Assembly: GCF_030684315.1 (NCBI RefSeq)
Contig: NC_081391.1
Span: 21,040,629-21,104,628, forward strand
Reading direction: 5' to 3'
DNA: 64,000 nt
Origin: Stegostoma tigrinum
Lineage: Eukaryota
Shown piece after piece: positions 2,746 to 64,000 of the stretch (position 1 is the stretch's first letter; each line of letters opens with the position of its first letter). Position numbers and translations under genes: made by a program. Under the pieces are notes generated by a model, which saw nothing but the letters and a program-made list of their open reading frames with translations, ran no database searches and was not told the origin of the DNA.

Positions 2746-5138
2746 ATGGCTTCCCGAGTGTGTCAGAACTACCACAAGGACTGTGAGGATGCTGTTAACA
2801 AGCAGATCAACCTGGAGCTCTGTTCCTCCTATGTTTACCTCTCCATGGTGAGCTTTGTGGAATTGAAGCCTGTGTGATAACAGTGTTGACCTGTTTGGGG
2901 TTTTTATGCTGGGTTAATGACTTAGCCGTAGCATGTATTGTTTTCTGTGGCCCTTCCCCTGATGCAATCTCGTGCAAGTCCTAACACTGACTGTCTATTC
3001 AGTTTTTGAACACTGTCTTAATATACAACTGGCTCCTGGGTGTGGATCCCCAGTTGTCCATCTTGGGACAGTGTAGCCCTTGGTGATTGTTTTCATTGAA
3101 CTCTGGAGGGTTGAGCTGGTTTTGCTGATAAATTTAACTTGGTTATATCCCTTTTTCTTCAGAAAACCTTCCCTGGTAGGACACAAATGTATCCTTTTGT
3201 TTGAACCTTGCCCCATTTGCCAGACTGGCTTATGTTCAAGATCTAAAGTTCCCTTAACTAAAGACAGCAACTGCTGGAAATCAAACAGCAACAAGAATAG
3301 CTAGAAAAGTTCTACAGATCTGCAAGGAATGGTGGAAGAAATCCGGTCAAATTTTGGGTCCACTGACCCTTGCTCAGTGTGTTTTGTGAGCTATGAAAAG
3401 TGGCACACACTTGAAATATTAACTCGTGTCCAACAAAGCAGTTAGAATTCTGTGTGGAGTGGGTGGTAGGACACTAGGGTTATTCAGGTGGGTGATGGTG
3501 ATAATGAGGCTGCTGACTGAGATTTCTGGCTGTGTTAATGACTGACTGCATTATTCATAGCATTTCATTCAGTTGGATAGGGGCCTAACTAGTCTCCACC
3601 TCGCGAACAATAGTGTTTTATCACCTGCAGAACAGGGATATCTAATAGCTATAGACAGCTGTCCCCTTCATTGTGCACCATGCCACACTCTATCGCACCA
3701 TTTTAGCAAAACACAGGTGAGGGATTGCATTTGGTTTTTGTTCTCTATTTCCAGAAGTCTGGCTAAGTATCTGTTACATGGGTTATAATCCATGGAAGGT
3801 GACTTCCTGGCTCTCTCTAGTTTTGCCCACTTAAATGTGGAGTCAAGATGGTAACTGGGTTAGTATCTGAGAAGAGGCATTGATGTATTTCAGACATTTC
3901 CCTTTATTGCCTCTTTCCCCCGACAGGTCTCTTACTTTGACCGGGATGATGTTGCCCTGCGTCACTTTGCTGAGTTCTTCAAGGAGCAGTTCCATGAGGA
4001 GCGGGAACACGCTGAGAAACTGATGGCTTTCCAGAATAAACGTGGAGGCCGAATCCTCCTGCAGGACATCAAGGTTGGATTCCAAAGCTTTCTTTTGCAG
4101 CTTTTTGTGAAATACCACTCCATTGTGGCTAGCTCAATCTGTTTAGCTTCAGGACTGAGCAAATACTGTATGAATAGGGGGGTTGCTCACCACAATACGA
4201 TTCCCTTCACTAAAAGGAAACACTTTTGCACGTGATTGAACAATAGTTGGCAATTGTGATAATCCAGTATTCTGGATGGTGAGCAAATATCGGTGTCTAC
4301 CGCTGCTTTGGACAAGATGAGGTGTCAAAAGGGAAAACAGAAATCTTTCAGGTGTGGAAAGCATCAGTATGAAGCCTTAATACATCTAGCAGATGTTTCC
4401 GATGCCTTGTGATTACTCTGATCACAGCATAGCAGGATCTGTTTAGAAATGTCCCCTTCAAGAACAGTACCAAATACAGCAGGTGTTTCACCAAGGTCAA
4501 GTCGGCCTGTAGTACTTCCCCGACAATGATGAGGGATAATTAACTGATCAGATGTAGACTAATGATACAACTGCCTGCTGAGCTGTGCTTTCTGTTCCTG
4601 CTTCCCTCCCTCCAGAAGCCAGAGCAGGATGAGTGGGGCAATGGTCTGGAGGCAATGCAGAGAGCTCTGCAGATGGAGAAGGATGTGAACCAGAGTCTGC
4701 TGGATCTGCACAAACTCGCCTCTGGCCACATGGACCCTCATGTGAGTGTGGTGTATTAAATCAGGGATTTTGAATTAAAAACAGGGATCAGACACTTGGT
4801 CCTTTTCGTTAGCCACAAGATCTCCTTTGACATTGTGGAGGGTTTTCTTGGGTTATACCAAGATCATCCTGTTTCTAAAACTGTGCACTTTCTCGAGTGT
4901 ATTTGGCAATCTCCATGACATCACTTCACTGTTTGGTCTCCCAAGCTGTATTTTGTTGGATTTAACCAGTTCCCCTCTTTGCTTTCTCCAGCTGTGTGAC
5001 TTCCTGGAGAGGCACTACTTGGATGAGCAAGTGAAGATGATCAAGAAGCTGGGAGATCACATCACCAACCTGAAGAGACTGGGAGCCCCTGACAATGGCA
5101 TGGGAGAGTACCTGTTTGACAGGCTCACACTCAGCTGA
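2746..5138 (+). CDS. ferritin subunit (M / heavy-chain-B-like), copy A, 173 aa
   Basis: join(2746..2847,3927..4073,4616..4741,4992..5138), GT-AG introns. [173 protein letters not shown]. Frame is intact but the TATA box is degraded. Confidence 0.9.
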
Positions 5139-5210
5139 ATGGGGTCAATATCTATATCTGTTGTACATGGTGACGTCATTCTACTAAATGACTAGTTGTG
5201 CTCTGAGCAA

Positions 5211-5216
5211 ATTAAA
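5211..5216 (+). terminator. putative polyadenylation signal ATTAAA
   Basis: ATTAAA lies ~70 nt after the stop in every complete copy: also 12030, 17151, 23830, 30689, 37890, 43014, 49695 and 56532. Confidence 0.6.
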
Positions 5217-62155: not shown

Positions 62156-63455
62156 ATGGCTTCCCGAGTGTGTCAGAACTACCACAAGGACTGTGAGGAT
62201 GCTGTTAACAAGCAGATCAACCTGGAGCTCTATTCCTCCTATGTTTACCTCTCCATGGTGAGCTTTGTGGAATTGAAGCCTGTGTGATAACAGTGTTGAC
62301 CTGTTTGGGGTTTTATGCTGGGTTAATGACTTAGCCGTAGCATGTATTGTTTTCTGTGGCCCTTCCCCTGATGCAATCTCGTGCAAGTCCTAACACTGAC
62401 TCTCTGTTCAGGTTTTGAACACTGTCTTAATATACAACTGGCTCCTGGGTGTGGATCCCCAGTTGTCCATCTCGAGACAGTGTCGCCCTTGGTGATTGTT
62501 TTCATTGAACTCTGGAGGGTTGAGCTGGTTTTGCTGATAAATTTAACTTGGTTATATCCCTTTTTCTTCAGAAAACCTTCCCTGGTAGGACACAAATGTA
62601 TCCTTTTGTTTGAACCTTGCCCCATTTGCCAGACTGGCTTATGTTCAAGATCTAAAGTTCCCTTAACTAAAAACAGCAACTGCTGGAAATCAAACAGCAA
62701 CAAGAATAGCTAGAAAAGTTCTACAGATCTGCAAGGAATGGTGGAAGAAATCCGGTCAAATTTTGGGTCCACTGACCCTTGCTCAGTGTGTTTTGTGAGC
62801 TATGAAAAGTGGCACACACTTGAAATATTAACTCGTGTACAACAAAGCAGTTAGAATTCTGTGTGGAGTGGGTGGTAGGACACTAGGGTTATTCAGGTGG
62901 GTGATGGTGATAATGAGGCTGCTGACTGAGATTTCTGGCTGTGTTAATGACTGACTGCATTATTCATAACACTTCATTCAGTTGGACAGGGGTCTAACTG
63001 GTCTCCATGTGCAGAACAGGGATATGTAATGGTTATAGACAGCTGTCCCCTTTGTGCACCATGCCACACTCTATCGCACCATCTTACCGAAACACAGGTG
63101 AGGGATTGCATTTGGCTTTTGTCCTTTTATTTCCAGAAGTCTGGCTAAGTATCTGTTATATGGGTTATAATCCACGGAAGGTGACTTCCTGGCTCTCTAG
63201 TTTTGTCCACTTAAATGTGGAGTCAAGATGGTGACTGGGTTAGTATCTGAGGACAGGCATTGATGTATTTCAGACATTTCCCTTTCTTGCCTCTTTACCC
63301 CTCGACAGGTCTCTTACTTTGACCAGGATGATGTTGCCCTGCGACACTTTGCTGAGTTCTTTAAGGAGCAGTCCCATGAGGAACGGGAACATGCGGAGAA
63401 ACTGATGGCATTCCAGAATAAACGTGGGGGCCGAGTCCTCCTGCAGGACATCAAG
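62156..63455 (+). CDS. ferritin subunit, copy A' (exons 1-2; remainder lies beyond the window)
   Basis: join(62156..62257,63309..63455). [13 protein letters not shown]...[39 protein letters not shown]... The window ends late in intron 2. Confidence 0.85.
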
Positions 63456-64000
63456 GTTGGATTCTGAAGCCTTCTGTTTGCAGCTTGTTGTGAGCAGCTA
63501 CAATCGACTGGTATCTCCATCTATTTAGCTTCAGGATTGAACAAACCCTGAGTGAAGGGGAGGGTGTTCCCCAAAATAGGATTCCCTTTCAGGCAAAAGG
63601 AAATACTTTGTCCTTGTGACTCTTCAGCAGAAGGCAATTGAAATGAACCAGAATAGGGAGTAGATTTTGCTGTGAATGACTCTTTGAGACAAGGTGAGGT
63701 AACAAAGTATGAAAGGGAACTTTTGCAGGTGTGGAAACTAGCAGTGTCCAGCCTTTGTGAATCTAGATGTTTCTGATAACTTGTGACAATTCCAAACACA
63801 ATAGGAAAGCCAGGAATTACTTCCATTGGTACCTATTCTCTGCATGTGAATTCTGAGAATCTACATTCACAGTAGAATGTGTTTAGAAAATTTCTTAATC
63901 CCTCAGTACAAAATCTAGGAGTCTTTCCCAAATTAACATTGGTTTGTAGTACCTCCTACAATGATGAGGGATGACTAACCAGTGTAGACTAATGACTCAA

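Follow-up and report, generated by a model that had tools for sequence, protein, structure and literature searches.

A 1.6-Mb array of ferritin genes without iron-responsive elements in the zebra shark Stegostoma tigrinum, and its possible role in supplying ferritin to oocytes

In vertebrates, ferritin is the classic example of iron-dependent translation, and two or three genes for it are the usual number. What, then, are the ten ferritin loci in a single 64,000-nucleotide stretch of the zebra shark (Stegostoma tigrinum) genome for? This window is C50:21,040,629-21,104,628 of the 3.2-Gb genome (C50 is contig NC_081391.1; positions are relative to the window unless C50 is named). The initial annotation, made from the letters of the window, proposed an amplified family under birth-and-death evolution, possibly for bulk, tissue-specific production. 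We find that the window is a small part of a very large array whose genes lack the iron-responsive element (IRE), and that the promoters of this array resemble those of a second, L-like ferritin array on the same contig. We consider it likely, with a probability of roughly 0.6, that gene dosage and promoter determine the output, with oocytes as the most likely site and the L-like array as a probable partner.

Loci were called by exon-by-exon BLAST, using the four coding exons of the 9564 locus as query, with a check of splice sites. All ten are on the plus strand, with coding exons of 102, 147, 126 and 147 nt. As the initial annotation had read them, five have a complete frame (173 aa, GT/AG at all junctions), four are broken and one is cut by the window end. 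The intact genes are W1 (2746..5138; exons 2746-2847, 3927-4073, 4616-4741 and 4992-5138), W2 (9564..11961; exons 9564-9665, 10783-10929, 11461-11586 and 11815-11961), W4 (21486..23761), W6 (35428..37821) and W8 (47349..49626). W2, which has an ATTAAA poly(A)-type signal near 12030, encodes the most frequent protein of the array (seven identical copies); W6 encodes the same protein, with a gene identity of 99.4%, and W8 is 99.5% identical to W4. Two pseudogenes of one type, W3 (15871..17078, exons 2-4 only) and W7 (41732..42941), are without exon 1 and have the exon-2 acceptor changed from AG to GG; repeat-derived DNA takes the place of exon 1 in W3. The other two, W5 (28207..30616) and W9 (54052..56461), have a stop at codon 76 and have lost the exon-4 acceptor, and W9 has an additional stop in exon 4. 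Exons 1-2 of W10 (62156..64000; F187) are inside the window and exons 3-4 past its end, and the genome copy is intact. Most of these genes belong to two higher-order repeat units on the plus strand, 7482..32147 (W2-W5) and 33311..57986 (W6-W9), which are 97.97% identical over 24,716 columns and have a four-gene period of about 25.8 kb. Tandem Repeats Finder reported no arrays in the window, the period being too long for the program.

The array is open at both window ends, as had been suggested, and continues from about 19.95 to 21.556 Mb of C50, a span of 1.6 Mb. Its median spacing of 6.7 kb agrees with the one locus per about 6.5 kb noted in the window. We read C50 from 19.93 to 21.67 Mb and used 1.644 Mb without N for exon grouping. 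The exon matches formed 258 groups; after exclusion of 22 inverted exon-3 fragments (<70 bp) and three diverged ferritins, 233 loci remained, of which 116 are intact, 60 have four exons with a stop or frameshift, 41 have exons missing and 16 were flagged for splice sites or start. Six of the flagged loci are actually intact (mis-grouped with a stray exon 4), and a further intact gene lies left of a 33-kb stretch reading N, giving a total of 123 intact of 234. All four exons, with introns, are present in 192/233 loci of this single array, which bears out the earlier view of intron-containing genes and is unlike processed pseudogenes, which lack introns and are dispersed. The loci form six strand blocks (63 minus, 8 plus, 17 minus, 15 plus, 16 minus and 114 plus). 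Nested inverted repeats occupy the middle, C50:20.57-20.82 Mb (36.6 kb at 98.5%, 20.7 kb at 97.8% and 20.0 kb at 98.2%), and copies with a long tail (175-176 aa) are found mostly in this centre and at both array ends. The excluded exon-3 fragments (55-65 bp, C50:20.02-20.46 Mb) each have a decayed copy about 0.9 kb away and are repeated with the unit.

An exact exon-1/intron pattern had 171 matches genome-wide (reversed control, 0), with 141 in the array stretch. The remaining 30 are all on the minus strand, as is every copy in the part read (100 of 267 kb) of C216, an unplaced contig full of array copies that was left out of the array counts. Over 57.7 kb, one part of C216 is 99.54% identical to C50, and this part may represent the other haplotype; another part matches at best at 97.9% and is possibly an extra or rearranged segment. 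Among segment pairs of at least 15 kb (n=84; range 95-99.65%), none reaches 99.8% and five reach 99.5%, and there are 103 distinct coding sequences among the 116 intact copies. Three DNA runs were available from two samples of a single study, one sample possibly being the source of the assembly. In these runs summed contig depth, which is not equal to copy number, was about 400-1400 times as high on the exons as on adjacent unique contigs; examples are 1778, 4177 and 13261 on exons versus about 4.5, 9 and 19 on unique contigs. The initial annotation had named a read depth of one or two copies as a result that would undo it; contig depth excludes that there are only one or two real copies.

The array subunits (173-176 aa) align end to end with cytosolic ferritins, and the 173-aa frames are without a signal peptide; thus, the protein would be made inside the iron-storing cell. 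Two array-type database proteins matched PF00210 with E 1e-37 to 1e-39, as did exon 2 (E 5e-11), and a PF00210 search with exon 4 alone gave no match. Residue numbering and the ferroxidase list (E24, E58, E59, H62, E104, Q138) follow PMC4117605 (here and below, publications are cited from the available parts of their text). These six residues and Y31, seven in all, are kept in 115/116 intact copies, and the nucleation residues E54 and E61 in 115/116 and 112/116, respectively. Judged by residues, the array subunits are M-type, with ferroxidase and nucleation sites both kept. The best PDB match is bullfrog M ferritin (4mjy, 1mfr; E about 1e-82), and the vertebrate M subunit shares with the array these six ferroxidase and two nucleation residues, a structure of four exons and three introns, and 75.6% identity.

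The array genes are under moderate purifying selection. Omega is 0.51 (MGK, fixed tree, the 103 distinct coding sequences; likelihood-ratio test against 1, 2dL 61.4, 1 df) and pairwise pN/pS is 0.32, both values being open to bias from gene conversion and from the choice of intact frames. Invariant columns number 63/172, and the mean protein distance is 6.9%. Introns are far more diverged than synonymous sites (intron-2 distance 0.26 vs synonymous pS 0.08, in the 76/150 sampled pairs with similar intron length), which fits exon homogenisation. The proposal of amplification with birth-and-death evolution is upheld by this omega together with the stops, frameshifts, lost exons and splice defects of the remaining loci.

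Lacking is the iron switch. The genome contains two canonical IRE-bearing ferritins, FTH1 on C20 and a single gene, F258 (C50:21.607-21.609 Mb), which lies 52 kb beyond the right end of the array. An IRE-like stem-loop within 400 nt upstream was found in both of these positive controls and in 0/199 array loci with exon 1. Of 12 loci scanned with Rfam, FTH1 and F258 alone matched IRE_I, and an Rfam search at E<=10 of positions 9300-9700, around W2, gave five weak unrelated matches and no IRE. The 5' untranslated region (UTR) IRE of vertebrate ferritins (H, M and L) regulated through the IRE and iron regulatory protein (IRP) is thus absent from the array. We also considered an IRE remnant in the array leaders, as a few resemble the lower stem of the F258 IRE. 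In shuffle tests of the array consensus, 53/1000 shuffles were as good against the region upstream of F258 and 31/1000 against that of FTH1, and nhmmer gave no match; because the shuffle test failed, descent of the leaders from the F258 IRE is not claimed.

Array copies have a TATA box about 75 nt before the ATG. The TATA-to-ATG stretch of W2 (9495..9563, plus strand) is predicted to include a 5' UTR of about 45-50 nt without an IRE, taking the start site from the TATA box; W1 has TAGAAA at 2670 instead. The W2 proximal promoter (9302..9494, plus strand) contains CCAAT at 9302 (forward) and at 9384 and 9413 (inverted), CTGATCA at 9346, an E-box at 9427 and TATAAATA at 9487; the promoter of the second array, the L-like one, aligns with this arrangement. 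In contigs of three putative-RNA runs (related organisms, three studies), only exons are present, joined across introns: 11586 is joined to 11815 at GT..AG in 3/3 runs, intron 2 is also bridged, and the contigs start some 20-30 nt upstream of the ATG. The family is therefore spliced in relatives.

The second tandem ferritin array extends on C50 from about 12.99 to at least 14.24 Mb, and was read over 100 kb (C50:13.75-13.79 and 14.18-14.24 Mb). With an exact exon-1 pattern, 160 matches were obtained, the first of them at 12.99 Mb; among the 100 matches listed, all are on C50. A guessed degenerate pattern gave 0 matches. The encoded protein is 74% identical to that of the first array and has K at 59 and E at 138 replacing ferroxidase E62 and Q141. 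An IRE was found in 0/12 loci of this array. The 200-nt promoter consensus sequences of the two arrays align with a score of 77, versus 46.9+-6.8 for shuffled sequences (1/1000 shuffles), whereas the same test with the promoters of single ferritins gave 103 (F258), 241 (F256), 713 (F257), 508 (F259) and 966 (FTH1) of 1000. TGATTGG is present in 97/116 copies of the first array and 11/12 of the second, and CTGATCA in 72/116 and 11/12, versus 6-7% of random windows for each motif. E-boxes (52/116 in the first array) are no commoner than in random windows (33%). A literature search on oocyte-type promoters found nothing, so the CCAAT and E-box content is not claimed as oocyte-specific. The shared promoter design suggests that the two arrays may be co-regulated. 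In the protein tree the two arrays are not joined with support.

How old is the family? The nearest named matches to exon 2 are proteins of zebra shark, whale shark and bamboo shark, automatically named 'heavy chain A/B-like', 'middle', 'higher' or 'oocyte isoform-like'; next in order are many proteins of catsharks, horn shark, sawshark, sevengill, white and basking sharks, smooth-hound and sawfish. Many-copy relatives occur in at least nine other shark genera and in sawfish. In our main tree (a careful version with 26 rows; a 73-row tree was the quick version), the array-type proteins of every elasmobranch sampled (hexanchiform, sawshark, horn shark, lamniform, sawfish and carpet sharks) form one clade (100/100), with the white-shark proteins inside it; the lineage is an old one. 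The carpet-shark copies cluster together (99/96), as expected from lineage-specific turnover. The array clade is separate from the FTH1 clade (97/97) and from the F258 group (100/97). Three placements of its sister have p values of 0.16-0.34 in the approximately unbiased test and none is rejected (array with FTH1, 0.34). The C20 ferritin has a bestrophin gene adjacent, FTH1 as best matches and a place inside the FTH1 clade (97/97); the array shares neither this clade nor the bestrophin-adjacent locus.

The expansion of shark ferritins is already in print. Sahm et al. (10.1101/2024.09.09.611499) report 155 'FTL' and 179 'FTH1' copies in the Greenland shark, a cluster of 118 'FTH1' and 104 'FTL' copies that is ovary-specific among their tissues, and ferritin clusters common to Greenland and white shark. 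Yang et al. (2026; PMC13214024) report 59 'FTH1b' copies in the Greenland shark, called the highest of 13 chondrichthyans including zebra shark, describe expression of some copies in fin and blood, and tie the copies to ferroptosis and longevity. Like the array, these clusters consist of tandem intron-bearing ferritins on one small chromosome, partly 5'-truncated and found across sharks (hundreds of copies in Sahm et al., dozens in Yang et al.); the array is thus another large cluster of this shared kind. It differs in the species, in having 123 intact copies rather than 59, and in being neither FTH1 nor near human FTL. In the available text, 'iron' has no matches in Sahm et al., 'IRE' has none in Yang et al., and promoters are mentioned by neither; more broadly, the literature searched, in which subscription journals were largely not included, yielded nothing on loss of the IRE or on shared promoters in the shark expansion. 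New here are the full count, the conflict with the claim of highest copy number, and the promoter link.

We propose that mRNAs without an IRE would escape repression by IRPs, so that the more genes there are and the more active their promoters, the greater the output would be, and ferritin would be produced on a developmental schedule in the ovary or oocyte rather than on cellular iron demand. Copies of the array turn over through unequal duplication and loss, and the array is likely maintained to supply ferritin in very large quantity. Both arrays would be expressed together, and their products would co-assemble into 24-mer cages of oxidising M and mineralising L-like subunits, which would stock iron in large yolky eggs. 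The earlier suggestion of bulk, tissue-specific production is plausible and has the backing of the published ovary-specific signal in the Greenland shark. More speculatively, and with somewhat less than even confidence, this may be an elasmobranch-wide second ferritin system, free of IRE/IRP control and built on two co-regulated mega-arrays (about 230 catalytic M-type and about 160 L-like loci) with a shared promoter design, making a hetero-cage 'yolk ferritin' in oocytes, a reproductive expansion whose size would be unrelated to longevity.

Several points weigh against the supply of oocytes. Ovary specificity comes from one sentence of a preprint on a different species (10.1101/2024.09.09.611499), and some FTH1b copies are transcribed in Greenland shark fin and blood (PMC13214024). 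The epigonal organ, which is lymphomyeloid, encloses the shark ovary (PMC5568229), and thus 'ovary' RNA may be leukocyte-derived. Equating the array with the published clusters relies on the white-shark proteins in the clade, no Somniosus (Greenland shark) sequence being among the matches listed, and the promoter score is one test of two consensus sequences with scoring set by hand. The omega value of 0.5 is high, and roughly one locus in two is broken. Finally, TATAAA or TAGAAA is missing in 21/116 intact copies and an upstream ATG is present in 14/95, so many copies may be silent.

Some of the same observations would suit a function in immune cells, that is, an inducible, iron-independent ferritin of epigonal or Leydig-organ granulocytes or blood that withholds iron from microbes. 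We consider this unlikely, although it is the strongest of the alternatives: besides the epigonal tissue in ovary samples (PMC5568229) and the transcription of some copies in blood (PMC13214024), ferritins of fish react to infection (PMC4117605), and loss of the IRE fits any transcription-driven role. However, Sahm et al. call the cluster ovary-specific among tissues (10.1101/2024.09.09.611499), and the invariant columns and mean distance given above indicate little diversifying selection.

A slightly smaller chance goes to amplification that is mostly runaway and near-neutral, by unequal crossover in a repeat-rich region, with few working copies. Broken loci (111/234), higher-order repeats that carry dead copies along, the omega value and the LINE (long interspersed nuclear element) fragments in each unit are in keeping with it, but omega differs from 1, exons are far more uniform than introns, and the many-copy relatives in other genera and a second array of like size argue for long-term maintenance. 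Doubtful, too, is that copy number buffers somatic oxidative stress and ferroptosis and adds to long life, as proposed for the Greenland shark: carpet sharks are not known to be exceptionally long-lived, and the family is elasmobranch-wide. Intact copies here are about twice the 59 called highest in the paper that made the proposal (PMC13214024); in its favour are the ferroxidase site kept in array copies and the hadal snailfish fthl27 (14 tandem copies, recent and broadly expressed), which lowered reactive oxygen species in cultured cells (PMC10746142). That the array is an artefact of assembly, with haplotigs or with one or two genes falsely duplicated, as the C216 match and the five pairs at 99.5% could hint, is effectively refuted by the ceiling below 99.8%, the distinct coding sequences, the 1.644 Mb without N and the exon depth in three DNA runs.

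Supply of ferritin to oocytes has partial parallels in other systems. Amphibian eggs are reported to contain ferritin (cited in PMC1488847). The yolk ferritins of the snails Lymnaea and Biomphalaria are IRE-less, like the array, and egg-linked, but they are secreted products of single genes, with a signal peptide and a 42-aa insert (PMC10799875), whereas the 173-176-aa array frames lack both and are cytosolic-type subunits, amplified more than 100-fold; the parallel is a functional analogy only. Salmon M genes bear IREs (PMC4117605), unlike the array. Snailfish fthl27 is likewise a tandem amplification, and differs from the array's about 230 loci and elasmobranch-wide distribution.

Three further single ferritins, all diverged, lie near the array on C50. 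F256 (C50:21,570,745-21,580,354) and F259 (C50:21,659,128-21,670,210) are intact and IRE-less, the former with K61 and Q65 at metal sites and the latter with most ferroxidase residues lost. The frame of F257 (C50:21,591,656-21,601,893) extends upstream as far as an in-frame Met and so gains a leader rich in Arg, Leu and Pro, a composition seen in mitochondrial targeting sequences. Human FTL adjoins RUVBL2 and BAX, and on C50 there are a TIP49-family gene (18.55 Mb) and a Bcl-2-family gene with several exons (26.43 Mb), both assigned at family level. Glycogen synthase, also sought on C50, was not found there, with matches on C20 and C33. Synteny of C50 with the FTL region is suggestive only. 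The glycogen synthase gene on C20 (18.98-19.04 Mb) is about 0.95 Mb from FTH1. Two database records, P0112 and P0181, are vertebrate-type ferritins under bacterial names and are probably contaminated; P0112 groups with shark F258.

Within the window, a LINE-type reverse-transcriptase fragment (26022..26921, plus strand) lies in the repeat unit and has relatives at 2-632 and 14043-15218; two of the four frames scanned matched PF00078 (E 1e-10 and 2e-13). A unit-specific non-coding block ahead of every gene (1228-1887, 8020-8616, 20063-20398 and 33908-34567) contains stop-free frames of 110-220 aa. No Pfam match was obtained with the one frame scanned, and these are probably chance frames in conserved repeat-unit DNA.

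The finding of more than 100 intact ferritin copies without the IRE switch departs from iron-tied control. At least 123 intact copies in one array, versus 59 in the Greenland shark, where the number was linked to lifespan (PMC13214024, available text), point to under-counting in annotations. If the supply of eggs is the true role, the array would reveal the way in which large, yolk-rich eggs obtain their iron store, and would be a protein-coding parallel to the amplification of ribosomal DNA and histone genes.

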